In this document: piece by piece, positions 4,186 to 63,760 of the stretch
Layout of the letters: every line of letters begins with the position of its first letter
How positions within the stretch are numbered: the first letter of the stretch is position 1
NCBI GenBank assembly: GCA_964016885.1
Contig: OZ024746.1
Location: 89,900,001-89,964,000, forward strand
Source of the DNA: Eledone cirrhosa
Lineage: Eukaryota
Direction: 5' to 3'
Length of the DNA stretch: 64,000 nt
Made by a program: the position numbers and the translations under genes
Notes under the pieces: model-generated
The model's database searches: none
Seen by the model: the letters and a program-made list of their open reading frames with translations, nothing else
Told to the model about the DNA's origin: nothing

Positions 4186-4361
4186 ATGTAGGAGGTGAGT
4201 TTTATGTTGATTTAAAACTGCACTATCCACAAGTGTTTTTTAGCCTTCATATCATGTCCTCCTGTTTTATCTGATGAAAACACAAATATTATTGCATGAT
4301 GATGTTTGTTTTTGAAATGCGCATAATAAAATACATGGAACTCCTTTAACCATCTTTTGAT

Positions 4362-4368
<7 letters not shown>
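4186..4368 (+). mobile_element. Short pseudo-LTR remnant of the Hydra-type PLE family between (TA)n tracts
   Basis: 4206-4368 matches 33714-33880. 4186-4205 (tgtaggaggtgagttttat) matches the inverted element terminus at 30345. Confidence 0.8.
4265..4331 (+). ncRNA. Minimal type I hammerhead ribozyme motif
   Basis: Stem I ttttat/ataaaa, CTGATGA at 4271-4277, long stem II, GAAA at 4314-4317, stem III t-gcgc-a with a palindromic loop, cleavage triplet AUA. Confidence 0.8.
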
Positions 4369-16480: not shown

Positions 16481-16684
16481 ATAGCACAAGTCAGCGCTCA
16501 GAGAGAAAGAAAGAAAACTAGAGAAAAAATGTGAACTTTTCTCCCTAAATAATTATGTAAAAACAATTTCCCTCCATATTCATTTCCTTATAGAAATGAT
16601 TTATCCAGAATTGTAATAAATTCTGCAGAATAATTTTTATGAATGAAACATTTGTAATCCTGGAGAAATAATTTCAATAATAAA

Positions 16685-16878
16685 ATAATTGTTTCTACTT
16701 TAGGCACAAGACCAGCAATTACCCAGTACATTACTGGTACTTTATTCTATCGACCCCGTAAGGATGAAAGGCAAAGTTAACCTGGGCAGGATATGAACTC
16801 CGACTGTAAAGGGACGTAACTCTATGCTTCAGAGCATGGCGTCCGAACCTCTACCGATACTGCCAATCCACCGCCCTT
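16685..16878 (-). mobile_element. tRNA-derived SINE, dominant family of this window
   Basis: Minus strand has A-box tggcagtatcgg, B-box-like gagttcatatcc, body ctttgcctttcatccttacggggtcga and 3' gaaacaattatt. Eight or more homologous copies lie in the window. Confidence 0.88.
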
Positions 16879-17212: not shown

Positions 17213-17352
17213 ATATGTGTTTGTGTGTGTTTGTATGTATTCATGTGTATATGAAACTGTGTAGATATAACTTAATAAGAGTAGAAATAACAATTTGTTT
17301 ATGTCATTAGGTTGTTACAGAATGTATTATTGACAGACAATTGTAATAAATT

Positions 17353-17543
17353 AATAATTGTTTTACTTTTGCCACAACGCCAGCAAATACCCGGTGCATT
17401 ACTGGTACTGTATTTTATCGACCTCGTTAGGATGAAGGGCTAGGTTAACGTCGACGGGATTTGACCCCAGACCGTAAAGGGACGTAACTATGCTAGAAAG
17501 CATGGCGGCCAACCCTCTACTGATACTGCCGATTCACCACCCT
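17353..17543 (-). mobile_element. SINE, same family as 16685
   Basis: Colinear similarity over ~190 bp. Confidence 0.85.
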
Positions 17544-22734: not shown

Positions 22735-23986
22735 ATATGAAAAAGTTTGTCCTCATCAGTGGCCTTCCAACCGTCTCAGGCATTTCGTCGCATTAAAGGC
22801 CATATACCTCAGGTTGGTGCGAGCAACGGCTAAAGAAAAGTCGTTGGGACACGTAAATAAAGGGGACGCTAGGGTAAACAAACAAAAATGGTTTAAGAAG
22901 CAGAAAGTGATGAAGAAGGAAACAAGTCCCAGATTTCTATGAATATAAATTCGGTGGAATCGTGAACGAGAGAATAAAGACCATCAAACCTGGTTGAAAT
23001 ATGAGCAAGGAAGGAATTTCGCACTGGCTAACGGGAGGAAGAAGGGGTCTGGTCTGCGAATTCGGTAAACATAAGTTCTGTGAAGTCGCAGACGAGACAG
23101 AGAGAAAAAAATTCATACCGACTTGGTAAAGTGCCCGCGAGAAAAGGATTACGGACAGGTCAAACGGGAAGAAAGGGGAGGAGGAGAGGTAGTGACAGAG
23201 AGTGAGTGAGTGAAAGGTGAGGAAGAGGCTAACAGAGAGAGAGAGACTGCTAGAAAGGGTAAAGACAAAAAGAACGAAACAGACTGGTGGCAGCGGAGGA
23301 AAAAATATATGTATCAATATGATAATAATGGAGCTGCGGCGCTACAAATGGGTTACATATGAAAAAGTTTGTCCTCATCAGTGGCCTTCCAACCGTCTCA
23401 GGCATTTCGTCGCATTAAAGGCCATATACCTCAGGTTGGTGCGAGCAACGGCTAAAAAAAAATCGTTGGGACACGTAAATAAAGGAGATGCTAGGGTAAA
23501 CAAACAAAATCGTTTAAGCAGCAGAAAGTGATGAAGAAGGAAACAAGTCCCAGATTTCTATGAATATAAATTCGGTGGAATCGTGAACGAGAGAATAAAG
23601 ACCATCAAACCTGGTTGAAATGTGAGCAAGGAAGGAATTTCGCACAGGTCTAACGGGAGGAAGAAGGGGTCTGGTCTGAGAATTCGGTAAACATAAGTTC
23701 TGTGAAGTCGCAGACGAGAGAGAGAGAAAAAATTCATACCGGCTTGGCCAAGTGCCCGCGAGAAAAGGATTACGGACAGGTCAAACGGGAAGAAAGGGGA
23801 GGAAGAGAGGTAGTGACAGAGAGTGAGTGAGTGAAAGGTGAGGAAGAGGCTAACAGAGAGAGAGAGATTGCTAGAAAGGGTAAAGACACAAAGAACGAAA
23901 CAGACTGGTGGCAGCGGAGGAAAAAATATATGTGTAAATATGATAATAATGGAGCTGCGGCGCTGCAAATGGGTTACATATGAAAA

Positions 23987-23991
<5 letters not shown>
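22735..23991. repeat. Tandem dimer of a ~622-bp unit plus a ~14-nt start of a third unit, in (TA)n
   Basis: tatgaaaaagtt recurs at 22736, 23358 and 23979. The two units are highly similar but not identical. Confidence 0.92.
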
Positions 23992-24049
<58 letters not shown>

Positions 24050-24053
<4 letters not shown>

Positions 24054-25580
24054 TTATGCTTACGGAGAGTCTAGTTGCCAATAAGAAACACACGCACCAG
24101 GTGCTTTCATTTCAATTTATTATAAAGTAAATTTATAAATTTCCGGTTGGTTGGTCGTTTCCACAACCAAACGATTGTTCATATATTGTCAAAGTTCTTT
24201 TGTCACACATTCTGTGACCTCTTCAGTGGCTGGGGATTCTTTTCTTTGTTTTTGAGGCGCTTCTTTGTTCTGTCTTATGCCATCTTGTTTTTGTTGTGTG
24301 CCTAGTTTGCGCTTGTGTTACATCCGGGTGTCTGTGTGTGTTTATATTTGTTTATTTATTTGTTTATTTACATGTTACTGGTTGGTTGTTTGTTCTATGT
24401 TTGTGTGTGTTTTCATTCCGTCCTTAATTGTAAGTTGTGATGTTGCTATTCTATTCATGTTTTCTATTTAATTTTGGTTGGAATTCATTTATGGTTATTG
24501 CCTTTGTGATTTGTCTAAAAATTGCGTCTTTTTTTGTGTAGATTCTATTTTTATTTCTATGTTCTCTAATTTACCCTTATGTTCTATTTTAGCATGTTGG
24601 TGGAGTACAGATGATTCTTTACTATCTTGAAGCTCTCGCCAGTGTTGATTTATCCGCTTCCCTATACTACGAGCTGTCTCACCTATGTACACTATATTCT
24701 TATCTCTACATTGTCCTTCAGTATATATTATGCTATATACTACATTTTTAGTTTTACAGTTAATATGGGGGCTTAGTTTAGAGATTATACGTTTCTCATC
24801 TATACAGGTAGGTCTTTGAAAAGGATGTGTATTGCTAATAAGTGTTTTTTATGGAGGTACCTGGTCTTTCTACTCTCTTAATATTGAGTTTATATATATC
24901 TAGGGCCCTATATAAATGTGTCAGCTAATTCACCTCTAAGGGTTGTATCGATGAACATTACACCCTGGTATTTATTGTTATCATACCATGAGTTTATTCT
25001 ATTAACCTTATTCCTAGTTCTTTCTATTCTATTACAACATTTGCTCCTATACATCGGTCAGGTCCCATTTGTATCATTATTTACCATGTTTTCCCATTTG
25101 GTTCTGGCTCCTCTATATACTCTGATTTTATCTCTCAGATTGTAACCAGAGAACTGCATACGGTGGATGAAGTGTTGTATGTGTCTCTCTAGTTCTTTGG
25201 GGTTGCACATGCGGGACACGTTTCTCATCACCCGTTCCAAATCCGCAATGAGTATGTTGATTTTGGTAGGGTCCGAAACAGCGGAGCTTCGGTGGATCAG
25301 ATATTTGTAAGTCATGGGTTTGGCATAATGGGAATGGAGGATTTGTTTTTTGTTATTAATGGAATCTAACCAGAGCTCTGTGTCTAGCACAGGGAATCGA
25401 TGGTTGGGGTGTTTTCTTGGGTAGTCTATAGTAGCTCTAATACTCTGGTGGATGGAGTTAGCTATTTGCTGGATGCTTTCCATGGTGTTTTTCTCTAATT
25501 ACAGACTGTTCTCTAGTGTTTTTTTTTCACTACGATGTTTATATCATCAACGTAGCGGGAGTACATTATCAGGTTTAAGA
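24050..25580 (-). mobile_element. 5'-truncated decayed PLE, sister subfamily (B) of the 44.7-52.8 kb element
   Basis: YSRYVDDINIV near 25540-25565, MESIQQIANSIHQS...PVLDTELW...RMQFSGY, YIGETARSIG. The 3' UTR matches 29092-29560 and 63465-63720. Confidence 0.92.
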
Positions 25581-28530: not shown

Positions 28531-29041
28531 ATATATATATATATATGACACTCTAAATATCACCCTCTGTATAATTGCATATACATTCCCAATAAATTCA
28601 ATGCTATAATTGGATGCCAATGCTAGAATGCTGACATGGTATCACATAATTTCCTAAACTAATTCTTCTAATAGTAATATTTAAATGATAATATTTGTGC
28701 TGTGCATTAAATTAAATAAATCCACTTTAGTAAACGTAAATATGGTACGTTTATAAAAATTCACACGCTGTGGTATCTTAATTGAAATATAAAATAGATT
28801 TGCTTTTATATTAATCGAAGATTTACACTGAAAAATGTATGCAGACAACTAAAAATTGTTAACTCATGCGACGATTTCCCTAATTCAAATACCGTTTTCG
28901 GGCTAATGGAACATCTTGAATTACCTGGATGAGTAGGTAATGTTATTTTAACAAGATTCGACTTCACACACTACAAATCATTTGTTGCGTGTACTCTAGA
29001 TACTCTGCTATTTGAAAACCCACATATTAGCTTTGTAAAAA

Positions 29042-29091
<50 letters not shown>

Positions 29092-29099
<8 letters not shown>

Positions 29100-30217
29100 A
29101 TACTTTGGGAGGGTGATGTTGCCAATATGAAACACACGCACCAGTTGCTTTCACTTCAATTTATTATGAATTAAATTTAGAAATTTCCGGTTGGTTGGTT
29201 GGTTCCACAACCAGACGATTGTTTGTATATTGTCAAAGTTCTTTCGTCACACATTATGTGACCTCTTCAGTGACTGGGGATTCTTTTTTTGTTTTTGTGC
29301 CTCTCCTTTGTTCTGTCCTACGTCATCTTGTTTTTGTGTGTGTTGTCTGCTTAGTTTGCGCATGTGTTACATCCGGGTGTCTGTGTGTGTTTATATTTGT
29401 TTATTTATTTGTTCATTTTCATGTTACTGGTTGGTTGTTTGTTCTATGTTTGTGTGTGTTTTCATTTTGTCTTTAATTGTAAGTTACGATGTTGCTGTTC
29501 CATTCATGTTTTCTATTTAATTTTGGTTGGAGTTCATTTATGTTTATTGCCCCTGTGATTTGGCGAGAGCTTCAAGATAGTAAAGAATCATCTGTCCTCT
29601 ACCAACATGCTAAAATAGAACATAAGGGTAAATTAAAGAACATAGAAATAAAAATAGAATCTACACACATAAAAGACGCAATGTTTAGACAAATCACAGA
29701 GGCAATAAACATAAATGACTCCAACCAAAATAAATAGAAAGCATGAATGGAATAGCAACATCACAACTTACAATTAAGGACAACATGAAAACACACACAA
29801 ACATAGAACAAACAACCAACCAGTAACATGGAAATAAAAAAATAAATAAACAAATATAAATACACACAGACACCCGGATGTAACACATGCGCAAACTAAG
29901 CACATAACACACACACAAACAAGATGGCGTAGGACAGAACAAAGGAGAGGCACACAAACAAAGAAAATAATCCCCATTTACTGAAGAGGTCACATAATGT
30001 GCCACGAAAGAACTTATGAACAATCGCCTGGTTGTGGAACCAAGCAACGAACCGGAAATTTATGAATTCCTAAATTTATAAATTTAATTTATAATAAATT
30101 GAAGTGAGACTGTTGGTGCGTGAGTTTCCTATTGGTAACATGACCCTCCCAAAGTATAAGAATATTGGTTTCAACACACGTTTTCATATACAGAATCTTC
30201 CTAAACAAATTCAGAAA

Positions 30218-30223
<6 letters not shown>
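29092..30223. mobile_element. Head-to-head inverted pair of 5'-truncated PLE subfamily B 3' ends, in (TA)n
   Basis: Minus arm at 29092-29562 and plus arm at 29561-30223. The plus arm carries the EN C-terminus WRELQDSKESSVLYQH...RQITEAINI, then the UTR, then ATG 30140 reading [28 protein letters not shown]. Confidence 0.92.
29232..29274 (-). ncRNA. Minimal hammerhead-like motif of PLE subfamily B
   Basis: Minus strand: gtca CTGAAGA g gtcac-ataatgt-gtgac GAAA g-aa-c TT tgac. Confidence 0.6.
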
Positions 30224-30280
<57 letters not shown>

Positions 30281-30299
30281 TAGATAGATAGATATATAC

Positions 30300-30348
<49 letters not shown>

Positions 30349-31202
30349 GGAGGTGAGTTTTATTGTAGCCCAATAAAGCAATGCAGATATCGGATAAGTA
30401 GCACTCTACAGTTTGTCGGACTGGAGTATAAATAATATAAGATCGAAACATGGTTAAAAGAGTTCCAAGTATTTTATTATGCGCATTTCAAAAGCAAATA
30501 TCATCCTGGGATGATATCTGCGTTTTCATTATATAAAATAGGGATACATGATATGAAGCTTAAAAAACACTTGTGAATAGTGAAGTTTTAAATCATTATA
30601 TGAAAAATAATTTAAGATTGATGTATGAGTTTGGGAAAAAGTGAGAGGGGGGTGGGGGTGGAAAAGGTAAGGAAGAGGAGGAGATGAGTGTAAAGAATGG
30701 TGGGGGAGGAGTATAAGAAGGAAGAATGAGAGAGGAAGAGAGATGGGTGACAGTGAGAGAGAGATAGCCTTTACAACTGACAAAAAATATATATTGTCTC
30801 ACAGAGAGAAGTTAAAAAGCCGTTGGAACATAATAGATAATTTAAAAGAATTTGAAATAAAAAGTTAATGAGGTTTATGCATGAAGAGAAAAAAAAGGGA
30901 TTAAGATTAATATTAAATTGAGGTTTGTATATTGAAGGGTTAAATAATACGTGCGAGGAAAATACATTATTAATATGTATCATTAAATTAAAAATAATAA
31001 TGTTATTAAGGATATACTGTGAAAAGAAGTAAAAGAATGAATGAGTTGTGAATTTAGAGGAATAGGTTAGTGTTTAAGTTTGTTTTTATGTAATATAATA
31101 TGTGTGCGTAATATATGTACGTAAATAGTTTGTTTAAAAATGAGCGCAGAAAGCAAAGAAGAAAAGAATGTTTAAGGAAGTAAAATATCTAACATCATTA
31201 TT

Positions 31203-32616
31203 TTGAATTCTTTAAATCGGAAAATTCCTCAACTTCGCGGTGGAATTTATCGTGACGATGGACTTGTTACTATCTTAAATTGCAATTTAGTTAACCTTAA
31301 TAATATTAAGAACAATATACGTGGTCTCTTTAAGCAACATAACCTTAAAATCGAATTTGATAACGTCAAACTAGCTAACTTCTTGGATATATCCCTTAAT
31401 CTTGACACTGCCCTATATTACCCTTACCATAAAAACAATGAGAATCTAAATTATGTTAATTTTAAATCTAACCACCCAACTAACATTAAAAATGCTATAG
31501 TCAGTAATATTGGAAAAATAATATCCTCTAATAAAAATATATTTGGTGCTAACGCCAATTAATATGATAATGCGCTTTCTAAAGCCGGATATCCTGATAA
31601 AATTAAATACAGTAACAAAACCAATCCTAGAATGTCTTACAGTAAAATAATTAATTATGATCATTCCAATAACTTAAATATAAGGCCTAGATACAAAAAT
31701 ATAATCTGGTATAATGCTACTTTCTCTATTTCTATTAATAATAATTGTTTCTACGTTAGGCACAAGGCCAGCAATTACCCAATGTCTAAACTATTCTTTA
31801 GGGCCTTAGATAAATGCTTACCTCCCTCACATATCTATCGTAGAATCTTTAACAAACATACAATAACATTTTCCTATTCCACCTCCTCCAACATCTCTAA
31901 CATTATCTCTAAACACAAAAATAAAATATTAACTATTAAATCACATCCTTCCAACACTGAGCGTCATAATAATAACTGTAGTACTCCCGACGTCATTGTT
32001 AACTCTAGGCAGAGATTCTGCAAACTCAAATACGACGTCAAATGTAATTTCGTTGTATGTTCATAATACCAATCTAAATCAGGAAAATATTATTCCTATC
32101 GTAGATATCGTCTCCAATCCAATTCCTCCTATAAATAACACTAGATCACTTGTTAATAACTCTGTTAATCTCTCTAATCGCAATTGTAATTGCCCTGTTA
32201 GAACTAAATGTCCTCTCAGTAACCATTGTCTTGATTAAAACTTAGTCTATGAATGTAAGGTTATAACTGATACCAATTCCTTTACCTATTTCGGTTCCAC
32301 TTCCACCTCCTTCAAGGCTAGATTTTATAACCACAATTAGTCTTTTAGATACCAACTTAAAATAACTAACACGGCACTCTCAGAACTCATATGGTCCTTG
32401 AAAGACAAACAATATTAGCTATAACATCTCTTGGAGAAAAGTTTGTTCTGCCTCTCCCTACTTGAATGCCTCCCTATCCAGAACATGTAATCTTTGCCTA
32501 TTACTGAGAAAATTACCATTATATCTAATCTCAATTCTATAATAAATAGACGCACTGATTTATTTTCTCTCTGCTTGCATAAATTCCACAGAACATTCCA
32601 CAAAGTATACACCTAA
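31203..32616 (+). pseudogene. Hydra-type PLE RT-GIY-YIG pseudogene (5'-truncated, with stops and frameshifts)
   Basis: GGIYRDDGL, NFLDI, SNHP, IIWYN, IFNKHTITFSYS, CNC...CPL..HC, LVYECKV, YFGST...FKARFYNH, IWSLK, CNLC...EK...NRR..L...CLH. The CxC linker before a C-terminal EN fits the Hydra clade. Confidence 0.82.
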
Positions 32617-33773
32617 TATCTAATACCTTACTAGTTTAACATCTTTTTTCTCAAAGGATTATATATCTTTTAAAAATATACCCATTGTTCTACCTTATTT
32701 CAATATTATTTATTATATATTATATAATACAAGTTACTCATTCTATATCATTCCTCTTTATCAGTTTCCTTTCTTCCTCTTTTCATTCTAATTTATAACC
32801 TCTAATCAGAAATTGTTCTTCCTAACTACTTCCCAATTCTTATTATTACTCACCACAACATTATCCAATCTTCCATCGTTCTTCATTCATTGGCCATAAC
32901 AATTTTTTTTTTTTTTAAAAATACATTATAGTATGATCTTTAATAGTCCTTCGTAAACATAAACATTTTTTTTTTTATGTTAGATTTTTCTTCCTTAAAT
33001 TCCTTATTTCTTCCTTTCATGCTCGTTTGACTTTTACATATTACAATACATAAAAACAAACTTAAACCCTAACTAATTCAGTTAATATATTATATTATTA
33101 CCATTAGAAAATATTTCGTAAACATGTATATTTTTTTATATTAGATATTTTTGTTCCTCAAACATTCTTTTCTTCTTTGCTTTCTGCGCTCATTTTTAAA
33201 CAAACTATTTACGTACATATATTAAGCAAACATATTACATTGCATAAAAACAAACTTAAACACTAACTAATTCCTCTAAATTCACAACTCATTCATTCTT
33301 TTACTTCTTTTCACATTATATCTTTAATAACATTAATATTTTTATTTTAATAATGCATATTAATAATTTATTTTCCTCGCACGTATTATTAAACCCTTCA
33401 CTATACAAACCTTAATTTAATATTATTCTTAATCCCTTTTTTTTCTCTTCATGCATAAACCTCATTAACTTTTAATTTCAAATTCTTTTAAATTATCTAT
33501 TATCTTCCAACGGCTTTTCAACTTCTCTCGGTGAGACAATATATATATTGTTCTCAGTTGTAAAGGCTATCTCTCTCTCTCTATCACCCATCTTTCCTCC
33601 TCTCTCATCCTTCCTTCTTATACTCCTCCCCCACCATTCTTTACTCTCATCCCCTCCTCTCCCCCCCGTCACTTTTTCCCAATATCACACATCAATCTTA
33701 AATTATTTTTCATTGTTGATTTAAAACTTCACTATTTACAAGTGTTTTTTAAGCTTCATATCATGTATCCCTA

Positions 33774-33840
33774 TTTTATCTGATGAAAACGCAGATATCA
33801 TCCCATGATGATATTTGTTTTTGAAATGCGCTTAATAAAA
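33774..33840 (+). ncRNA. Minimal hammerhead ribozyme motif in Hydra pLTR (one stem III mismatch)
   Basis: ttttat CTGATGA-stem II-GAAA tgcgct TA ataaaa. The inverted copy at ~30471-30540 has a mutated core (ataatga). Confidence 0.72.
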
Positions 33841-35989
33841 TACTTGCAACTCTATTAACCATCCTTTGATCTTATATTATTTATACTCCAGTCCTACAAA
33901 CTGTAGAGCGCTACTTATCCGATATTTGCATTGCTTTATTGTGCTACAATAAAATTCACCTTCTACATTATATATATATATATATATAGAACATATGTCA
34001 CCTCACTCCTTTTTCTCTATCTGGCTTTGTATATATATACATATATAGGGAGAGAAAGAGAGGGGGATAGAGAAGGGGAGGAGAGAAAAGGAGATAGAGG
34101 GATAGCAAGAGAGAAAGAGAGCAAGTGGGAGAGATAAATATTATCCACTGTTACATCTTTTATACACATAAGCATAATTATGTTTTTATTTATGGTCCAT
34201 CTCAACGTTCCGTTTTTCTTAATCTTATCGCCTTGTTTACTTTTTAGTTAGAGCTGCCTGATATCCAAATCATTATAGTACTGATAAGCGTTGCGGATAG
34301 ATTCACTAGTTAATTCATGTGTACATATAATTCCTTTGATTATTTTTAAATTTATGTAGATTTTACTGAAAGGTATATAGCAACATCAAAGCAATCTATT
34401 TTTTGCCTTAACGCATTATTTTAAATCAAAACTCATTCATTCGTAATACAATTTCCGAAATATTTTTAGCGGTCTGGTGAAGCAGACTTATACAGAAAAT
34501 TTGTTGCACCCTCCTTCTCTTTCTGTACAATTCTCTTACTAACTCTACTTCTCTTCCCCACTGTGTGTATATTGCAATTCCTATTCAGATATAACTCATG
34601 TGTTTATTTATTTATGTACTATCCTCTTATCTCAATATATGAAGAGTATGTTTACTTCCTCTCGCGTGCGTGGCTTACTGTGTAGTTTTATGGTTTCATT
34701 AATTTAAACCGGATAATCCATGGTCGACAAATATCAGTAATGCACACGTATATAAATCTCAAAACAAATCTGATACGTTTACATTTAAATTCCCTGCAAT
34801 ACTTGGATTCATTTATCTTTGGGCTGTTAATTATATGTCATAAACCTAATTTACAAACCCCATTTTAAATATTGACCCTTGTATGACAGTCATCTCTAGA
34901 CCATAAAATCTATAGCTTTCAAAGACTAGTGGAACTCTTTTTTTCTATAACCTAATATTATATTTCTGTTGAGCAATGTTAAGGATAATCAATATTACTA
35001 ACACCAGGGCTTAGGTGATGCAATTAAAACATACATAATTGATTAAAGCATTTCAAATTCTTTCTTCCCATAATATTATTCTCAATAACTATATTTGTGT
35101 TGAGATACACTTTCTGAAATATTTGTCGTGAATTTTTAACATTGATCATGTATGTTCTTCTTACTTACTGATTTAAGGAAGCAAGTGATTTGTTGATCTG
35201 AAACTCCGTTGTCGACATCATGTTGGCAAAATCCAACCAGTATAAGGTGGTGTAACTTCTGAAGACGTTTTTGCTAGTATATGAGAAATCAGTAATTGTG
35301 GATAGTTATAAATGTCATATTAAATACTACCATTACCGTTTGTCATGTTTATATTCATTTTCTCACAATGTGTCGAATATATACCATTTACATCCTCTGT
35401 AAGTGATTTCTTGACGTGCCAATATATAATGATGTAAGACGCAATATGAAATCTAGTGGAAACCTGAAACACATTTTATTGAATTATTGTATTCCATAGT
35501 GATTTTGGAATAGAAATGCCCACACACTTGATTTCCGTGAAATATATTTTCTATCAATAATATCTATGTATGGAAGAATGTTACTGAAAGATGTCGTATA
35601 ATGTAAATTTTGATATCTCATATTTACATTCTATGCAATCCAATTGAGCTACACGTGTGATAGAGAGAAGGGATGTATGTGCGAATTCATATCGCGTGGT
35701 GATACAAGTCAGCATTTAAAGATAACTAAATACGTAGAAAATGGTAGGTTTTTTTCACTCACAAACAGCCGAATAAGGAAAGAAATAGGTAGAAATTAAG
35801 AGGCAAATGTGAATCTTCATCGAAATTGATTTTTGTTTGTTTCTCTATGCAACCATGTTTGTTATCAACATTGGTATTCATATTTGTTTTTAATTTGTAA
35901 TCTATATGTATAAAAGCAGGATTATATATATATGGAACGATCGACTTTCGTCAACTTGGACCGAGGAAACAATGTTTCCATTGGTATTT

Positions 35990-40475: not shown

Positions 40476-41109
40476 CTCTGTATACATATATACGGTTCCG
40501 TTTAAGACAGTCTTCACAACAAGAAAGATGAACAAACCATTCCAACATTTAATTTTAAATTTTGAATTATTTTTAATAGCAATATTCAACATTTGATAAG
40601 ATGGATTACACTGATACATAGAATCCGGTTATAATTTATATATTTTATATACACTAAAAAAACTCCTTAAAAAATACAAATAATGAACTGATTAGATGGA
40701 AATATAATATTTCAGAGCATATTTATTTCCTTACACATGGGAGTTGTACATCCAATTATATGAAATGTTATGAAACAATTCGCATAATGAATATTGATAT
40801 AAATGCATTCATATACATACACAATTCGACGCTCTCTCTCTTCAGAGAAACAATAAAATATCTTCGAATGAAAGAAAGTATGTCTGAAATACAATTTGTA
40901 AACTCGGCCATAGGGATGAAGCTATGGCAGGAGACATTTCAACAGTGTAAATAATACACATTCATTTTCTTCCAGTCTATATAATATTTAGCTAATTCTG
41001 AAATGGTGTGGCATTATATACTCTATAAACTATAATAAAGTAAGGAGCGCAGTACTGCGAACGGTTTATAAATTGTTATCCCATTAGGAAAATAAGTTTC
41101 CTTTGAATC

Positions 41110-41300
41110 AATAATTGCTTTTACTTCAGGAACAAGGTCAGCAATAACCCAGTGCATTACTAGTACTTTATGTTATCGACCCCCTAAGGATGAAAGGTAA
41201 AGTTAACTTCGACAGGATTTGAACTCAGACCGTAAAGGGACATAACTATGCTGGAAAGCATGGCATCCGACCCTCTAACGATATTGCCAATTCACCCACC
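41110..41300 (-). mobile_element. SINE, same family as 16685
   Basis: Colinear similarity. Confidence 0.85.
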
Positions 41301-44602: not shown

Positions 44603-44692
44603 GGAAAAAGATGAGTATTGATGTAGTACAATACTCATCTTTTTCCATTTATCTGAGGGTTCTAAACCGCATTATCAGGTAAAATTTCTTTC

Positions 44693-44737
<45 letters not shown>

Positions 44738-44999
44738 CGGCGATGAATTAGTTTTGCGAGGTTTTTTATATGAAATCGTGTGTCGAAACAGATATTGTTA
44801 TATTTGGGGAGGGTCATATTTGCGTAATATTGCCAGAATTAATAACAGAACACACTCACTGTTTGGTTGGTTTTCGCTTCTCGCTGTCTTTTATATATAT
44901 ATATCTGCGATCTAACTTACTCGGTCCTCAATGTTGCCATTGACTGACCGGCGGTCAAAAATAATACAGATACAATATAGACAAACACATATATATATA

Positions 45000-45046
45000 G
45001 TTTACATAAATCTTTCGTTGCACATCTGCAACATCGTCAGTGGTGT
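45000..45046 (-). ncRNA. Hammerhead-like motif in PLE 3' UTR/pLTR (mirror of 52510-52556)
   Basis: CTGACGA t gttgca-gatg-tgcaac GAAA gattt a. Confidence 0.6.
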
Positions 45047-45319
45047 TATATTCATTGTTCCTCCTGTTGTGTTGTATGTCTACGCCATTTTTGTTTGTGT
45101 TCAGTCTGTCTATATATTTATTTATTTATTTATTTGCTTGTTTGTTTATCTTATTTTATTTTGTCTTCTTTGCGCATGCGTTTGCGTGTGTGTATAGTGT
45201 TATGTGTGATGTGTGACTAGTGTGTATAGTGTTGTGTCTGCTGGGTGACTAGTGTGTGTTTATGTGCTTGTGTATGTATTTATTTATCTTATTTTATTTA
45301 ATTTAATTTACTTATTTAT

Positions 45320-48300
45320 TTATACTTCTCTTAGGTCAGTGTTGTTTGTTTGGGTGTTGTTGTTGTTCCACTCATTCTTTCTGTTTAGCTTTGGTCTTCT
45401 AATTTCTATTTCACTGGCCTCTCTGATTTGCCTATCTGCTGGGTCATTCCTATGTTTAGATATTATTCTAATTTCTATGTTGTCTATGTTACCGTCATGA
45501 TGTTGTCTAGCATGTTCGTATAGTACTGACCCGTTTTTTCGTCCTTTTAGTTCCCCCCAGTGTTGGTCTATCCTTTCACCTATGCTACGAGCTGTCTCAC
45601 CTATGTATGTTGTTGTCGTGTTTCTGCAAGTACCCTCTGTACATCTTATGCTATAGACTACGTTTCTAGTTTTACAGTTTATCCGGGGGTTCACCTTACA
45701 TATGATACATTTCCTATTGGTACAGTGGGTTTTCTTAAAAGGGTAGGTTTTGCTGATCAGGGATTTTATGGTGGTTCCTGGCTTTTCTACCACCTTTATT
45801 TTTAAGTGGGTCTTTCTCAGGGCCTTTCTACACTGGTTAGCTAATTTCCCTCCAGGGGTGGCGTCCACAAACATGACACTCTGATATCTCTGGTTGTCGT
45901 ACCATGATGTGGCCTTCCCTATCTTATGTCTAGCCCTATCTAAGCTATTCCATGATTTGCTCCTGTATAGTGGGCAAATTCCTTTCATGTCCAGTTCTAT
46001 GAGGGTCTTATACTTTTCCATGGCTCCTTCGTATACTCTGACTCTGTCTCTTTGGTTGTAGCCAGAGAACTGCATGCGGTTGATGAAGTGTTGGATGTGT
46101 CCTTCCATTTCTGTTGGGTCGCACATGCTGGACACATTCTTCATCACTCGTACCAAATCTGCGATCAGAATATTAAACTTAGCACTACTGGACATTGCTG
46201 AGTTTTTGAGTATCAGGTATTTGGAGGCCATGGGTTTAGCATAGTGTGAGTGGAGAATTTGGGCTCTCTCGTCTATAGTGTTAATCCAGAGTTCTGTGTC
46301 TAATACAGGTAGTCTATTGTTAGGGTGTTTGGAAGGGAAGTCTATAGTTACAGTTATACTCTGGTGTATGGAATTAGCTATCTGCTGGACGCTTTCCATC
46401 GTGCTACGTTCTAAATCAAACTTGTTAGTGCTCTCTAGTGGGGGTGTTCTTATAACTATATTGATATCGTCTACATAACGAGAGTACATGATGAGGTCTA
46501 TGGAGCTTTCATTAAGGAGATCTTTAAGTCTCCTTTCCCACCATACCATGAAAAGGTTGGCAACATCGCCAGCTATGCTGACGCCGATGGCTGCTCCCTC
46601 ATTTTGGGTGTAGATTTTCTCATTGAACTTAAATATGTGGCCCTTTAGGGTAGTTTTGATACTAGCCCCTATTGCATGTGCGACCATTTTTCTTACCTGA
46701 TCAGTGTTTTGGGGGGTCCGTATAGCTTTGGTCCACCCAATCCACCTTCCTATGGGAGTCTTTTTAGCCATTGAGGTTATGGTGGGGGGTCTACCTCTTA
46801 TAGGTCTACTAGGGCAGAAACATCTAAGGTCATGGCTGTCTAGGTAGTCAGTGTCGTAGGTAAGTCTAAGTAGGAGGCCCAGTTCGTCTGTGTCGACGTC
46901 GCAGAACTCCACCTCACTCTCAATGATCATCTCCACACATCTTTTCACAGCAAAATCAATGTTAATGGATGGGTACAGTGACACCACATCCATGCTGCCT
47001 ATTATGCAGTTGGATAGGCTCCTGTTTTTGTTGCACTCACTGATTCTGCTGAGGAGGTCCTCTGTACTTTCACATACATCTGGGGACATCTTGATTATGG
47101 GGCGTATAACCATTGAGAGGAAGTAGGAGATCCTGTAGTTGCTAGCTATATTAGCTCCGCATACAGGTCTTGTTGGTGGTCCTATTGTCGGGTCGTCGAC
47201 TGTCTTGTGGTCTTTGCGGAGCCCATACAAGGGTGGTATGCCATTGTTAGACGCCTGGAAGTTGTTGGCAGTGCGTCTGCTTGGCTTTAGGATGTCAGTC
47301 CACATCATCATGTGAGCGTTGAGGATTTTTTCTCTCCCATCGTGTGTTAGTTGTGCAACTTCGCTCGTGTTGGTGATGTGGGGTTGCATTGCCTCGATGT
47401 AGTTCGGCATGCTATCTATTGACATCCTACCAGACTTATCTGTGGGTAGACACACTACCTCACCATCCCTTGTGCGCTGCTTGAGGCTAACCAAGCCTTC
47501 TACAGGTTTTATCCCAAGTTGTTGGGCCTCTGGTCTGCTCTGTCTCATAGTGTACCTGTCTACTACTTGTCTAATCTTATTTCTAGCTATGGTGAACTGT
47601 GCCTCCGTCTCGTCATCTATTTGTTGTGGTATGCAAACTCTTTTATTAAAGGGTAACCTCGTAGGATAGATATTACCCATCTTATATGTTTTGTCAGCTG
47701 GGTTGAAAAATAGTTTCTCTAAGGGGTTGTCGTTATTTCTATCGTCATAGTTGTGTGTGTTGCTATTATTGTTATCATGGTGGTTGTTGTTGTTTCTATC
47801 CTTAGCATTAATATTATTATTGTTATGATTGCTAGATGTATTGTTGTTTACTTCACCGTTATTGTTGTTGTTGTTACTGCTATTTCTACCATTGTGGTTG
47901 TTACTATTATTATGTTTCTTGTTTTTGTTGATGTTGCTACATGTACTATTTCCATTATTACCACTGTGGTTATTGTTGTTGTTGTTGTTCGTATTGTTAC
48001 CGTTATTACTACTGTGGTCACTGTTGTTGTGTCTGTGGTTAACGTTTCTATTATTATTATTATTGTGGTTGTTGTTGTTCTGTCTATCGCTAGTATTATT
48101 ACCATTATCACTATTTCTCACTTTCCTGCCATTGTTATGGTTATGGCTGTTATTTCTATACCCAGAGTTATTGTTTATATTACTACTACCGTTATTATTG
48201 TTGTTGTTGTTTACCTTTGCATTCCAACGTATTTTTGTGAAACACTTTTCCAGCTCCGTTTTGCATTCCATAGGATTAATCTTTTTGTAGATGGCAAATT

Positions 48301-48887
48301 TTGGTGGTAACTTTAGGATTTGTTGTTCTTGTTCACTGATTAAAGTGTTCCCATAGATATTTACTGTGTGGTCATTGGTAAATTCTTCCGGTAGTTTTAC
48401 ATCACTCATACGGATGTTGTCGATGTTATCTGGGTATTTTTGAGAATATTCGATTTTCCTTTCTTGTAGTTTTTTCTTATTCATCCATTCTAATTTCTTC
48501 TTGAAATGCCTACAGCATTCGTTTTGAGCATATTTCGTTTCGCGTCGGATGACGCTCATGAAGTCATCTCTCTCGTTTGCTGTGATGAGATTTCGGATTT
48601 CCTTACCGTTGATGCGTTTTTGTCTGTAGAGTGCGTTGACTTTTGTGTATGTTGTTCTTTTCATATTAACTGTTATTGTGTGTTTTAGCCGTTCAGCTTG
48701 TGTTTTGTTCAATAATAAATTATTTACTTGTTTTGATATGTTTGTTGTGTATGTTTTGGAGGAAACACAGTGTTTTAAGAAGCGGATTTGTTCTGTTGTT
48801 ATTGTAGTTTTTATATAACAGAAAACAGTGTCTTTCAATAACCTTTCAGCTTGGCACAAGCTAATGCCATAGCGGCGATGAATTAGT
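45320..48887 (-). CDS. PLE polyprotein: RT plus C-terminal GIY-YIG endonuclease, uninterrupted but lacking its first ~22 codons
   Basis: PTDKSG, LYGLRKDHK, RPVC, SMDVVSLYPSI, GAAIG, YSRYVDD, LPVLD, CTNRKCIIC linker, NVVYSIRC...YIGETAR...R...H...H...H, RQIREASEI, LNRKNEW. The track start at 48859 is a TTG (Leu), and the frame stays open to ~48887. Confidence 0.95.
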
Positions 48888-48891
48888 TAAT

Positions 48892-51800
48892 ATGAAAAGA
48901 ACAACATACACAAAAGTCAACGCACTCTACAGACAAAAACGCATCAACGGTAAGGAAATCCGAAATCTCATCACAGCAAACGAGAGAGATGACTTCATGA
49001 GCGTCATCCGACGCGAAACGAAATATGCTCAAAACGAATGCTGTAGGCATTTCAAGAAGAAATTAGAATGGATGAATAAGAAAAAACTACAAGAAAGGAA
49101 AATCGAATATTCTCAAAAATACCCAGATAACATCGACAACATCCGTATGAGTGATGTAAAACTACCGGAAGAATTTACCAATGACCACACAGTAAATATC
49201 TATGGGAACACTTTAATCAGTGAACAAGAACAACAAATCCTAAAGTTACCACCAAAATTTGCCATCTACAAAAAGATTAATCCTATGGAATGCAAAACGG
49301 AGCTGGAAAAGTGTTTCACAAAAATACGTTGGAATGCAAAGGTAAACAACAACAACAATAATAACGGTAGTAGTAATATAAACAATAACTCTGGGTATAG
49401 AAATAACAGCCATAACCATAACAATGGCAGGAAAGTGAGAAATAGTGATAATGGTAATAATACTAGCGATAGACAGAACAACAACAACCACAATAATAAT
49501 AATAATAGAAACGTTAACCACAGACACAACAACAGTGACCACAGTAGTAATAACGGTAACAATACGAACAACAACAACAACAATAACCACAGTGGTAATA
49601 ATGGAAATAGTACATGTAGCAACATCAACAAAAACAAGAAACATAATAATAGTAACAACCACAATGGTAGAAATAGCAGTAACAACAACAACAATAACGG
49701 TGAAGTAAACAACAATACATCTAGCAATCATAACAATAATAATATTAATGCTAAGGATAGAAACAACAACAACCACCATGATAACAATAATAGCAACACA
49801 CACAACTATGACGATAGAAATAACGACAACCCCTTAGAGAAACTATTTTTCAACCCAGCTGACAAAACATATAAGATGGGTAATATCTATCCTACGAGGT
49901 TACCCTTTAATAAAAGAGTTTGCATACCACAACAAATAGATGACGAGACGGAGGCACAGTTCACCATAGCTAGAAATAAGATTAGACAAGTAGTAGACAG
50001 GTACACTATGAGACAGAGCAGACCAGAGGCCCAACAACTTGGGATAAAACCTGTAGAAGGCTTGGTTAGCCTCAAGCAGCGCACAAGGGATGGTGAGGTA
50101 GTGTGTCTACCCACAGATAAGTCTGGTAGGATGTCAATAGATAGCATGCCGAACTACATCGAGGCAATGCAACCCCACATCACCAACACGAGCGAAGTTG
50201 CACAACTAACACACGATGGGAGAGAAAAAATCCTCAACGCTCACATGATGATGTGGACTGACATCCTAAAGCCAAGCAGACGCACTGCCAACAACTTCCA
50301 GGCGTCTAACAATGGCATACCACCCTTGTATGGGCTCCGCAAAGACCACAAGACAGTCGACGACCCGACAATAGGACCACCAACAAGACCTGTATGCGGA
50401 GCTAATATAGCTAGCAACTACAGGATCTCCTACTTCCTCTCAATGGTTATACGCCCCATAATCAAGATGTCCCCAGATGTATGTGAAAGTACAGAGGACC
50501 TCCTCAGCAGAATCAGTGAGTGCAACAAAAACAGGAGCCTATCCAACTGCATAATAGGCAGCATGGATGTGGTGTCACTGTACCCATCCATTAACATTGA
50601 TTTTGCTGTGAAAAGATGTGTGGAGATGATCATTGAGAGTGAGGTGGAGTTCTGCGACGTCGACACAGACGAACTGGGCCTCCTACTTAGACTTACCTAC
50701 GACACTGACTACCTAGACAGCCATGACCTTAGATGTTTCTGCCCTAGTAGACCTATAAGAGGTAGACCCCCCACCATAACCTCAATGGCTAAAAAGACTC
50801 CCATAGGAAGGTGGATTGGGTGGACCAAAGCTATACGGACCCCCCAAAACACTGATCAGGTAAGAAAAATGGTCGCACATGCAATAGGGGCTAGTATCAA
50901 AACTACCCTAAAGGGCCACATATTTAAGTTCAATGAGAAAATCTACACCCAAAATGAGGGAGCAGCCATCGGCGTCAGCATAGCTGGCGATGTTGCCAAC
51001 CTTTTCATGGTATGGTGGGAAAGGAGACTTAAAGATCTCCTTAATGAAAGCTCCATAGACCTCATCATGTACTCTCGTTATGTAGACGATATCAATATAG
51101 TTATAAGAACACCCCCACTAGAGAGCACTAACAAGTTTGATTTAGAACGTAGCACGATGGAAAGCGTCCAGCAGATAGCTAATTCCATACACCAGAGTAT
51201 AACTGTAACTATAGACTTCCCTTCCAAACACCCTAACAATAGACTACCTGTATTAGACACAGAACTCTGGATTAACACTATAGACGAGAGAGCCCAAATT
51301 CTCCACTCACACTATGCTAAACCCATGGCCTCCAAATACCTGATACTCAAAAACTCAGCAATGTCCAGTAGTGCTAAGTTTAATATTCTGATCGCAGATT
51401 TGGTACGAGTGATGAAGAATGTGTCCAGCATGTGCGACCCAACAGAAATGGAAGGACACATCCAACACTTCATCAACCGCATGCAGTTCTCTGGCTACAA
51501 CCAAAGAGACAGAGTCAGAGTATACGAAGGAGCCATGGAAAAGTATAAGACCCTCATAGAACTGGACATGAAAGGAATTTGCCCACTATACAGGAGCAAA
51601 TCATGGAATAGCTTAGATAGGGCTAGACATAAGATAGGGAAGGCCACATCATGGTACGACAACCAGAGATATCAGAGTGTCATGTTTGTGGACGCCACCC
51701 CTGGAGGGAAATTAGCTAACCAGTGTAGAAAGGCCCTGAGAAAGACCCACTTAAAAATAAAGGTGGTAGAAAAGCCAGGAACCACCATAAAATCCCTGAT

Positions 51801-52236
51801 CAGCAAAACCTACCCTTTTAAGAAAACCCACTGTACCAATAGGAAATGTATCATATGTAAGGTGAACCCCCGGATAAACTGTAAAACTAGAAACGTAGTC
51901 TATAGCATAAGATGTACAGAGGGTACTTGCAGAAACACGACAACAACATACATAGGTGAGACAGCTCGTAGCATAGGTGAAAGGATAGACCAACACTGGG
52001 GGGAACTAAAAGGACGAAAAAACGGGTCAGTACTATACGAACATGCTAGACAACATCATGACGGTAACATAGACAACATAGAAATTAGAATAATATCTAA
52101 ACATAGGAATGACCCAGCAGATAGGCAAATCAGAGAGGCCAGTGAAATAGAAATTAGAAGACCAAAGCTAAACAGAAAGAATGAGTGGAACAACAACAAC
52201 ACCCAAACAAACAACACTGACCTAAGAGAAGTATAA
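48892..52236 (+). CDS. PLE polyprotein, second (more 5'-truncated) identical copy, 1114 aa
   Basis: Identical translation to the minus copy from MKRTT onward. YVDD at 51079-51090, VVY at 51895-51903, YIG at 51949-51957. Confidence 0.95.
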   Translation: MKRTTYTKVNALYRQKRINGKEIRNLITANERDDFMSVIRRETKYAQNECCRHFKKKLEWMNKKKLQERKIEYSQKYPDNIDNIRMSDVKLPEEFTNDHTVNIYGNTLISEQEQQILKLPPKFAIYKKINPMECKTELEKCFTKIRWNAKVNNNNNNNGSSNINNNSGYRNNSHNHNNGRKVRNSDNGNNTSDRQNNNNHNNNNNRNVNHRHNNSDHSSNNGNNTNNNNNNNHSGNNGNSTCSNINKNKKHNNSNNHNGRNSSNNNNNNGEVNNNTSSNHNNNNINAKDRNNNNHHDNNNSNTHNYDDRNNDNPLEKLFFNPADKTYKMGNIYPTRLPFNKRVCIPQQIDDETEAQFTIARNKIRQVVDRYTMRQSRPEAQQLGIKPVEGLVSLKQRTRDGEVVCLPTDKSGRMSIDSMPNYIEAMQPHITNTSEVAQLTHDGREKILNAHMMMWTDILKPSRRTANNFQASNNGIPPLYGLRKDHKTVDDPTIGPPTRPVCGANIASNYRISYFLSMVIRPIIKMSPDVCESTEDLLSRISECNKNRSLSNCIIGSMDVVSLYPSINIDFAVKRCVEMIIESEVEFCDVDTDELGLLLRLTYDTDYLDSHDLRCFCPSRPIRGRPPTITSMAKKTPIGRWIGWTKAIRTPQNTDQVRKMVAHAIGASIKTTLKGHIFKFNEKIYTQNEGAAIGVSIAGDVANLFMVWWERRLKDLLNESSIDLIMYSRYVDDINIVIRTPPLESTNKFDLERSTMESVQQIANSIHQSITVTIDFPSKHPNNRLPVLDTELWINTIDERAQILHSHYAKPMASKYLILKNSAMSSSAKFNILIADLVRVMKNVSSMCDPTEMEGHIQHFINRMQFSGYNQRDRVRVYEGAMEKYKTLIELDMKGICPLYRSKSWNSLDRARHKIGKATSWYDNQRYQSVMFVDATPGGKLANQCRKALRKTHLKIKVVEKPGTTIKSLISKTYPFKKTHCTNRKCIICKVNPRINCKTRNVVYSIRCTEGTCRNTTTTYIGETARSIGERIDQHWGELKGRKNGSVLYEHARQHHDGNIDNIEIRIISKHRNDPADRQIREASEIEIRRPKLNRKNEWNNNNTQTNNTDLREV

Positions 52237-52509
52237 ATAAATAAGTAAATTAAATTAAATAAAATAAGATAAATAAATACATACACAAGCACATAAACAC
52301 ACACTAGTCACCCAGCAGACACAACACTATACACACTAGTCACACATCACACATAACACTATACACACACGCAAACGCATGCGCAAAGAAGACAAAATAA
52401 AATAAGATAAACAAACAAGCAAATAAATAAATAAATAAATATATAGACAGACTGAACACAAACAAAAATGGCGTAGACATACAACACAACAGGAGGAACA
52501 ATGAATATA

Positions 52510-52556
52510 ACACCACTGACGATGTTGCAGATGTGCAACGAAAGATTTATGTAAAC
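52510..52556 (+). ncRNA. Hammerhead-like motif in PLE 3' UTR/pLTR
   Basis: CTGACGA at 52516-52522, one extra nt, 6-bp stem II, GAAA at 52540-52543, very short stem III. Stem I is weak. Confidence 0.6.
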
Positions 52557-52660
52557 TATATATATATGTGTTTGTCTATATTGTATCTGTATTATTTTTG
52601 ACCGCCGGTCAGTCAATGGCAACATTGAGGACCGAGTAAGTTAGATCGCAGATATATATA

Positions 52661-52741
52661 TATAAAAGACAGCGAGAAGCGAAAACCAACCAAACAGTGA
52701 GTGTGTTCTGTTATTAATTCTGGCAATATTACGCAAATATG
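52661..52741 (+). promoter_or_regulatory. Candidate pLTR promoter/5' UTR: TATAAAAG upstream of the element's true ATG (52739)
   Basis: TATAAAAG at 52661-52668, Inr-like acagt ~30 nt downstream, then an ATG conserved in subfamily B. Sequence inference only. Confidence 0.35.
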
Positions 52742-52756
52742 ACCCTCCCCAAATAT

Positions 52757-52828
<72 letters not shown>

Positions 52829-54920: not shown

Positions 54921-54921
<1 letters not shown>

Positions 54922-55072
54922 ACTAAAGAGTTTACCCTGATAGTGGGATTTAGAACCCTCTAAAAAATGGAAAAAGATGAGTATTGACGTACATTTAGAT
55001 CAACACTCATCTTTTTCCATGTTTAGATAGTTCTAAATAAACCCCACTATCAGGCTAAACATTTCTTTAGTA
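54921..55072. repeat. ~150-bp fold-back; partial homolog at 44601-44695
   Basis: tactaaaga..cctgatagtggg..atggaaaaagatgagt pairs with actcatctttttccat..cccactatcagg..tctttagta. Confidence 0.8.
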
Positions 55073-55804: not shown

Positions 55805-55908
55805 ATCTGAGTTCAAATCCCGCTGAGGTTAACTTTGCCTTTCATCCTTACAAGTACCAGTAATGTACTGTTGATTGCTGGCCTTGTGCCTAAAATAGAA
55901 ACAATTAT
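55805..55908 (+). mobile_element. SINE (partial), dominant family
   Basis: gagttcaaatccc...ctttgcctttcatcc...gaaacaattatt. Confidence 0.85.
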
Positions 55909-56921
55909 TTTAGCTTCAGGTCAAAAGTACCTAGTTAAATCGGATTGCAAATATTTGATTACTAATATGTGGCTACGTATAGATGGATAATTTATCAACA
56001 CGGCGTATAAATAAATACGTTTGAAAATCAATTTGAATGCGAAATTTTAATCACATTGCTAGAAAAATATAGATCTAAAGAGAACTCTCGTAATTGAATG
56101 AAGAATAATGAAATTGACTGCATTAAATGGTTATTGCAAGCTGATGTTTTGCGTTTTCGTCATCATCCAGATGCCACTAAAACTAAGCATATTGGTCTAC
56201 AGAACGGATGGATTAAAATGTATTATCAAGAGTGTAATATCCGGTGAAACTAAATAATATTCTAAGGGCAAAACCTTGGGTAATCTTAAATAATTTCTTT
56301 GATCCCCACAAGTGTGAACAGCCGAAACCATTGGACTTATCCAAACATCTTGCCCGGGCTCCACCCATAGCTCCTCTGCTCGTTGGTTGTGTCAATAAAT
56401 TCAGTCCAGCGATACTTTCTTGTGAAACACTAATCTGTTGACCTAATGTTGAGCCCTTGATCTCTCAATTCAGAGAATTATCAGATCTACTAGTAGTAAC
56501 TTTCTGATCTCCGAGCTCAGGACTCTATCGAGCAATTTAATCAAAATTTAATTGAATGAAACCCATTTCGCCCGCTTATGTTTACAATCTTATTTGATCG
56601 GTCATTGTACAATGTTTGGCACAAACAATGGATTGAATTTTGCCAGTTTGTGTTTTACACATAGCTCCCGTTTTCTGTTGATCAAATGCTGATGCTGGTA
56701 CATTACGACACAGGTTCATACCTATCTTGTTCAGACACTACAACATATTAATTAATGTCACAGAACCCTCATTTGAGATATGTTCACTGAAGCCTAGTAT
56801 TTTTAATCACAATCAGCGCTACTATATTCCCATTAGTTACGTATAAGATAATTACAGGGAGTCTCGTCAAAAGACTAGAAAATCTTTCCAGGTTACGTCA
56901 TATAATACCATAACACTTCAG

Positions 56922-57108
56922 ATAATTGTTTCTACTTTTGGCACAAAGTCAGCAATTACCCAGTGCATTACTGGTACTTTATTTTATCGAACCGGTAAGG
57001 ATGAAAGGCAAAGTTAATCTCGGCGGGATTTGAACTCAGAATGGCAAGGACCGTAACTCTATGCGTCAAAGCATGGCGTCCGACCCTCTATCGATACTGC
57101 CAATCCAC
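56922..57108 (-). mobile_element. SINE, dominant family
   Basis: Colinear similarity. Confidence 0.88.
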
Positions 57109-57210
57109 TTACATGAAATCTATAATAAAATAAAGGGAGGAGTGGGGGACAATGTCCGTTTTATATTTTTTTATATCCCGTTAATAAAATAAGTTGGGCT
57201 ACTTTGAATA

Positions 57211-57332
57211 AATAATTGTTTCTACTTTTTGGTACAAATCCAGCAATTACCCAGTGGATTACTGGTACTTTATTTCATCGACCCCGTAAGGATTAAAGGC
57301 AAAGTTAAACTCTGCGGGATTCGAACTCAGAA
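57211..57332 (-). mobile_element. SINE (5'-truncated), dominant family
   Basis: Colinear similarity. Confidence 0.85.
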
Positions 57333-58644: not shown

Positions 58645-58812
58645 ATTGGCAGTATCGGTAGAGGGTTGGACGCCATGCTTTTCAGCAAAGAGGTACGGCC
58701 TTATGGTCTGAGTTCAAATTCCGCCGAGGTTAACTTTCATTCTTACCGGGTCGATAAAATAAAGTACAAGTAATACGCTGGGATAATTGCTAGCCTTGTT
58801 AGAAACAAATAT
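58645..58812 (+). mobile_element. SINE, dominant family
   Basis: tggcagtatcggtagagg...gagttcaaattcc. Confidence 0.85.
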
Positions 58813-58868
58813 TAAATTAGAGACGTATGTGTGTTTGTGTCACATATATATATATATGTCTCTGTGTG

Positions 58869-59917: not shown

Positions 59918-60110
59918 TTGGTGGATTGGCAGTATCGGTAGAGAGGCGGACACCATGCTTTGACGCAAAGAGTTACGTCCCTTGCCATTCTGAGTTCAAA
60001 TCCCGCCGAGGTTAACTTTGCCTTTCATCCTTACGAGGCAAATAAAATAAAATACCAGTAATGCACTGGGTAATGTGCTGGCCTTGTGCCTAAAGTAGAA
60101 ACAATTATTG
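59918..60110 (+). mobile_element. SINE, dominant family
   Basis: Full-length colinear copy with A and B boxes. Confidence 0.88.

Positions 60111-63372: not shown

Positions 63373-63760
<388 letters not shown>

Follow-up and report, generated by a model that had tools for sequence, protein, structure and literature searches.

The window, by which we mean the whole 64,000-nt stretch of DNA that we analyzed, is AT-rich animal DNA with many (TA)n tracts. It holds Penelope-like elements (PLEs) of two diverged subfamilies, A and B, and of a second PLE family, E. Subfamilies A and B are each represented by one head-to-head pair, and two further copies, C and D, are B-type. Copy C, a sixth copy with its end near +26, had been missed by an earlier note on this DNA, and we found no convincing inverted partner for it. 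The features of the A and B copies are listed here, with positions in the element counted from its ATG.

24045..25578, minus strand: copy C, decayed, B-type, ~1.5 kb; its end lies in an expanded A-tract close to the short site
29044..29095, unstranded: (TA)n target tract, left side of pair B
29092..29562, minus strand: pair B left arm, 471 bp, 5'-truncated; its 3' end is the short site (ATG+26) at 29092
29242..29270, minus strand: hammerhead-like core in the pLTR of the pair B left arm; motif match only
29561..29562, unstranded: pair B head-to-head junction; 2-nt overlap without TA tract or filler, judged against copy C
29561..30223, plus strand: pair B right arm, 663 bp; endonuclease C-terminus, 3' UTR, ATG at 30140
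29981..30009, plus strand: hammerhead-like core in the pair B right arm; stem partly decayed
30166..30223, plus strand: 58-nt tail, subfamily B
30220..30255, unstranded: (TA)n target tract, right side of pair B
44734..48888, minus strand: pair A left arm, 4155 bp; its 3' end is the long site (44734)
44734..44791, minus strand: 58-nt tail, subfamily A; ATG at 44817
45320..48886, minus strand: open frame of 1188 aa; Asn-rich insert, reverse transcriptase (RT), CX4CxxC linker, GIY-YIG-type endonuclease with CCHH-like residues
48885..48888, unstranded: pair A head-to-head junction; 4-nt microhomology
48885..52764, plus strand: pair A right arm, 3880 bp; starts at ATG+282 and ends at the short site (52764)
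63465..63718, minus strand: copy D, solo, 5'-truncated, B-type, ~255 bp; short end, (TA)n on both sides

The element of pair A is apparently young and intact, and its two arms show no mismatch over 3880 bp. The right arm of pair B runs past the short site (30165) and stops at the long site (ATG+84) at 30223; in the left arm of this pair the start codon has decayed to ATC. An origin of the inverted pairs as artefacts of assembly, for instance from fold-back reads, is very improbable. The arms of pair A are 100% identical, an identity that polishing could inflate, but the flanks and ends differ between the two sides, the arms of pair B are only 91.5% identical, and the architecture is typical of PLEs. 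We also note that in pair A the left arm begins at ATG+65, within the tail, and comprises exactly one permuted unit together with a 20-nt direct terminal repeat (ATG+65 to +84; 48869-48888 and 44734-44753); a stall of the cDNA near the upstream copy of the initiation region may give such a start. A tandem duplication of ~620 bp, 96% identical (22739-23991), reaches the (TA)n tract that holds the 3' end of copy C.

We characterized the element from the 1188-aa frame of subfamily A. Among 4154 candidates, 164 are homologous to its RT and endonuclease part at E ≤ 1e-10; the best of these is an Octopus vulgaris protein at 68% identity, which makes a cephalopod the likely host. The RT core matched Pfam RVT_1 with E = 1.6e-4, which is under the Pfam cut-off. 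The Pfam scan over the entire 1188-aa ORF gave no match, nor was there a Pfam endonuclease match in this frame, and a PDB search with the element protein returned weak RT matches only. The YVDD and GIY-YIG-type motifs, which we spotted by eye, are conserved across 25 aligned sequences. A single ORF in which an RT is joined by a GIY-YIG endonuclease at the C-terminus is the layout of EN+ PLEs, and the element also has their pLTR, made of the 3' UTR plus the ORF start, and their tandem or inverted insertions. The linker reads C-x4-C-xx-C, two Cys lie within the endonuclease core, and His residues follow downstream. This agrees with the CX2-5CxxC linker ahead of a GIY-YIG core and the CCHH motif by which Neptune and Nematis are defined in the available sections of Craig et al. 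2021 (PMC8557442). By these definitions, which we applied to the motif layout, the element would be a Neptune/Nematis-type PLE. With such C-terminal EN+ PLEs it shares the RT, the CX2-5CxxC linker, the GIY-YIG endonuclease with CCHH-like residues, and microsatellite targeting; it differs in its RT motif, which is DKSG here, whereas PLE papers name DKG. An in-frame Asn-rich insert of ~150 aa lies N-terminal to the RT (47723-48310 and 49246-49833); N-rich inserts have been reported in Adineta vaga PLEs too, but at a different position.

The first codons of the 1188-aa frame are present only in the tail. The ATG plus 28 codons sit at the 3' end of the element, with a 20-nt overlap with the 5' end of the ORF. 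These 28 codons are the real N-terminus, as their F-x-T-R motif is also found in the homologs P0016 and P0022 and in a related locus, L001.

We placed the 3' termini in a six-way alignment of the subfamily A and B copies. The short ends at 29092, 52764, and 63465 fall in one alignment column, and the long ends at 44734 and 30223 fall in a column 58 nt further, with no gap between them. The two columns are ATG+26 and ATG+84 in both subfamilies, and both lie within the first 28 codons of the gene. This confirms the earlier proposal of two fixed 3' termini, 58 nt apart, in diverged subfamilies. It had also been proposed that the ends run into (TA)n through a short TA match, and indeed all five clean ends abut (TA)n tracts, with a TA-phase overlap that measures 4 nt for the short site and 3-4 nt for the long one. 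Because of this overlap, each end is uncertain by 3-4 nt, and the long end of subfamily B is not pinned further, since the subfamily B sequence that would follow is absent from the window.

The positions of the termini are conserved in a setting that is not. The 3' UTRs of A and B are 43% identical globally, compared with a mean of 35% and a maximum of 40.5% in 20 shuffles, and +1 to +84 is identical at 65 of 84 positions (77%). The chance of five ends falling on at most two sites is P = 0.003 with 17 TA-match sites and P = 0.18 with 4 candidate sites; these values are generous, as they overstate independence among copies that are related. The element offers longer TA matches, of 11 and 13 nt in the A UTR and of 5 nt at +19 and +51, yet all five clean ends lie elsewhere. 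The site therefore appears to be set by position and not by TA homology, and we rejected TA microhomology as the site chooser for these ends. The RNA at the start sites showed no significant fold (z of 0.43 and 1.46). We conclude that two fixed internal termini in the start of the coding region are supported, in a sample of six A/B ends and two pairs from one window.

Relatives of the element were found at 29 metagenome loci and on one genome contig, and none were viral. We scanned the 20 metagenome loci of at least 2300 bp and inspected the 3' regions of 12 of them and of the locus L030; these 13 regions held no long-site end and no informative pair, and an exact scan of the metagenome contigs for the 26-nt motif gave no matches. 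A usable end was present in one of the 30 related loci, L003 (44% identity in the best segment), which ends in (TA)n after M-V-L-A-T-I-N-Y. This peptide aligns with the N-terminus of P0016 and stops two codons ahead of the F/Y-x-T-R motif, the same spacing that the short site shows. L003 thus appears to end at the codon homologous to the short site (n = 1), a position that we infer, because its own ORF start lies outside the contig. The PLE relative L030 (2683 bp) is placed in a bacterial metagenome-assembled genome, on a short contig that is most likely host DNA binned with that genome.

The sequence between the two termini corresponds to the known PLE tail. The available text of PMC8557442 describes a tail of 30-40 bp, often at just one end, which can be either end, and (TA)n targeting. 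For Adineta vaga Pen2a, inverted insertions are described as often having the tail at one end (PMC3846280), and the accessible part of PMC2377424 describes a 34-37 bp repeat that flanks ORFs in D. virilis. The extension here is likewise optional, lies past the pLTR at one end of an inverted insertion, and codes for the next N-terminal residues. The Asn-rich in-frame inserts and an ORF placed between short direct repeats of tail sequence (20 nt here) are further likenesses to the systems of these three papers. The tail here is 58 nt long, outside the 30-40 nt of the papers, a range that is descriptive and not a strict definition. It also differs from the tails of those papers in having borders that are conserved to the codon across subfamilies, and both borders have a 3-4 nt TA match to the target. 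Novelty of the termini is not supported, since a tail at one end of inverted insertions was already described (PMC3846280, PMC8557442). The two termini repeat what is published and are a new example, not a new mechanism; what is added here is a longer tail, conserved borders, and a neighboring non-overlapping inverted copy that argues for priming on two strands. The literature that we searched, a scope that most subscription papers fall outside, held no report of a 58-nt tail or of site-to-arm coupling, and the available portions of PMC13282606, PMC12602865, PMC9977147, PMC8969392, and bioRxiv 10.64898/2026.07.22.740005 contained nothing further on termini.

The closest biochemical parallel is PAc, a Poseidon element from Anolis carolinensis, in which two internal RT start sites border the tail in vitro (PMC11167929). 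PAc resembles the element here in having two internal termini in the ORF start that border the tail, AT-rich targets, and a hammerhead in the pLTR (here a motif match only). It differs in belonging to the Penelope/Poseidon clade, which lacks the CX2-5CxxC linker, and its starts at ~+111-118 and tail of 30-40 nt stand against +26/+84 here. The same paper reports that PAc cuts and extends both strands in vitro, that a dimer is predicted, and that the start site showed no difference from strand to strand. Its initiation site is stated to be not homologous to the target. The earlier note had cited this work for microhomology-guided priming and so misquoted it. By analogy, the tail borders here are likely RT initiation sites, a role demonstrated in vitro only for PAc. 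The locus offers a Neptune/Nematis-type element with predicted start sites at +26 and +84 and a simple (TA)n target, where the literature that we found holds assays of one Poseidon protein.

A small number of distinct termini would also be expected if the ends were inherited. Read-through transcripts into flanking (TA)n would prime by (UA)n pairing, daughter copies would reproduce the junction of the parent, and the termini would persist by descent. All ends do abut (TA)n, and no target-site duplication is readable there. However, the same two codon positions have been kept while their surroundings diverged, probably in the distant relative L003 too, and PAc initiates internally on RNAs of varied 3' length (PMC11167929). 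We consider inheritance of the ends distinctly unlikely.

Our preferred explanation, which we hold to be somewhat probable, is that the copies are 5'-truncated PLE insertions into (TA)n, that RT starts at either of two internal sites with the known tail between them, and that priming on both strands gives the pairs. Following PAc, the protein would bind a tandem RNA within its downstream repeat, where the coding region begins, and the endonuclease would nick (TA)n, sometimes on both strands, as PAc does in vitro. Each nick would then prime cDNA at +26 or +84, the positions seen at this locus; placement in the RNP presumably decides the site, and the TA match of 3-4 nt helps at most. One priming would give a solo copy. 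Two primings on opposite strands would give cDNAs that grow toward each other and whose 3' ends could join by the 2-4 nt of microhomology seen at the junctions, yielding a head-to-head pair. In favor of this explanation, the same two positions are used despite the divergence of the UTRs, and stronger TA tracts are unused. The +26 site needs no inverted partner, because D and C, both solo, have their ends at or close to +26. The junction microhomologies are 4 nt in A and 2 nt in B, and the family E copy at 4186-4367 (see below) needs two primings. Against it, the 5' ends of paired arms lie close together, which points to a coupling that the model itself does not explain; in addition, the evidence for two primings comes from another family, and that from PAc comes from another clade.

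Family E served as a natural control. Its motifs, read in decayed frames, are those of the Hydra clade as given in the available sections of PMC8557442: a CxCX5C linker, no CCHH, CxxC and CxH, and (TA)n targets. Family E and subfamily A showed no significant protein match. The two copies considered are:

30346..33968, unstranded: family E head-to-head pair, Hydra-like PLE; both arms have the same terminus, within 1 nt
4186..4367, unstranded: family E copy; 20-nt inverted arm with the long terminus plus a ~160-nt sense arm

The 20-nt arm at 4186 is the exact reverse complement of the long E terminus, and an 18-mer of that terminus occurs only twice in the window. The ~160-nt arm ends ~91 nt before the long E terminus, a short E end that occurs once. 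Each terminus of this copy lies in (TA)n, and the arms do not overlap in the element; therefore they cannot come from fold-back of one cDNA, but two opposite-strand primings can produce them. In L1 twin priming, two primings on opposite target strands yield an inverted junction with microhomology. The non-overlapping E copy resembles this process, whereas the A and B arms both hold the 3' part of the element, overlap almost fully, and end at fixed internal sites, not at poly(A).

These observations bear on the earlier proposal of two internal priming sites, one for each target strand. Its two fixed internal termini stand, and priming on both strands is plausible given the 4- and 2-nt junctions, the non-overlapping E copy, and PAc in vitro. 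The assignment of one site to each strand is not supported, as the PAc paper reports no strand difference and the two arms of the E pair at 30346-33968 share one terminus. Of the four inverted pairs in the window (A, B, and two of E), three are mixed, combining a long with a short end, and in the fourth both ends are long. Two of the three mixed pairs, taken over families A/B and E, carry the long end on the longer arm. It had been taken as a rule that the long terminus sits on the longer arm; this rested on n = 2 and is reversed in the E copy 4186-4367, where the long terminus is on the shorter arm. Because E is a different family, it restricts the generality of the long-end rule without refuting it for A/B. 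A pair often, though not necessarily, combines a long with a short end, and the longer arm need not be the one that carries the long end.

In pairs A and B themselves, the tailed arm is the longer one (4155 versus 3880 bp in A, 663 versus 471 bp in B). With two pairs, this association of arm length and terminus has a probability of ~0.25 by simple arithmetic and is not above chance, and the arms that carry short ends measure 255 bp, 471 bp, 1.5 kb, and 3.9 kb, so that no length rule holds across copies. The 5' ends of the two arms are 217 nt apart in A and ~130 nt apart in B, though the pairs differ ~6-8-fold in length. Such closeness in both pairs by independent truncation has P = 0.01-0.13 under three simple models. 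Close 5' ends therefore favor coupling on one RNA, whether by a strict asymmetry of the two sites with displacement or by fold-back. Variants in pair B gave few clues: there were 0, 0, and 2 informative sites for separate templates of its arms (the left arm is 93.8% identical to copy D), and none of 24 run-polarised sites had a pair-specific shared variant (2 were shared, both also in C). A two-template origin of the pair B arms is not shown by these variants, because post-insertion decay explains them equally well.

In the strictly asymmetric route, a more explicit form of the earlier note's view, one RNP on one RNA uses +26 for one strand and +84 for the other; RT from +84 would push the first cDNA aside and move beyond its 3' end before joining, leaving each pair with one tail, on the longer arm. 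It fits the long and short end in both A/B pairs, the tail on the arm that reaches further 5' (by 217 and ~130 nt), the identity of the A arms over 3880 bp, and arm lengths that look coupled. The pattern rests on two pairs with a chance of ~0.25, however, and runs against the lack of a strand difference in PAc, against the long-plus-long and long-on-short-arm copies of family E (another family), and against the tail at either end in the part of Craig et al. (PMC8557442) that was available. We regard this route as rather unlikely.

The other coupled route, to which we give equally little weight, begins with a single priming at +84. The 3' end of the cDNA then folds back by microhomology to copy the cDNA itself, and at +26 the resulting second arm is either cut or joined to the target; a similar self-priming was already proposed for head-to-head PLE pairs (Arkhipova et al. 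2013). It predicts identical arms, a shorter second arm contained within the first, a small loop, and junction microhomology, all of which are seen in A and B. Yet there are solo copies that end at +26 and have no partner, the family E copy with non-overlapping arms cannot arise in this way, and a separate reason is needed for the stop exactly at +26.

A narrower version of two-strand priming would account for the coupling. One dimeric RNP would prime both strands on a single RNA at two codon-fixed sites, which would have stayed in place since a divergence to ~45% protein identity, and RT from +84 would chase and displace the cDNA from +26. We regard this as speculative and unlikely on present evidence. 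If true, it would explain at once the tail at one end, the close arm stops, and the slightly longer tailed arm, and it would provide a testable genomic signature of PLE inverted-repeat formation. The available text of PMC8557442 names the formation of tandem and inverted PLE insertions as an open question.

We compared 4 of 24 public runs with 29086-30233. In run X1, 15,672 contigs align to this interval, with a summed depth of 945k in the bin of the short end and of 818k, 692k, and 530k in three bins over the tail and right flank; these sums are not copy number. One contig of run X2 aligns, with 24 differences, past the long end and onto the TA flank. For run X22, raw-read depth falls from ~5,600 to ~140 in the last bin and 2016 molecules stop at 30211, so that these reads did not show the long end. 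Sequence of the short-end region and sequence of the tail are both common in public runs, where depth is no tally of ends. Words of subfamily A are present at 0.68-0.80 in runs of three organism labels (among X1-X19), with lower shares in many others.

The hammerhead-like core motif and stem are present in five of six arms, and the core is changed in copy C. An Rfam scan of 29000-30300 gave no hammerhead match, and folding z-scores were not significant. The related PLE locus L004 carries a 61-bp inverted piece of pLTR (1-61 and 3126-3186), with a hammerhead core at the start of the contig.

Two other repeats were noted in the window. An imperfect palindrome of ~150 bp beside a (TA)n tract (54921-55072; partial copy at 44603-44691) is MITE-like. 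A dispersed repeat of ~200 bp, with at least 8 copies at 75-90% identity (16670-16877, 17339-17543, 41106-41296, 55806-55912, 56922-57108, 57207-57331, 58645-58819, and 59920-60119), is probably a SINE.
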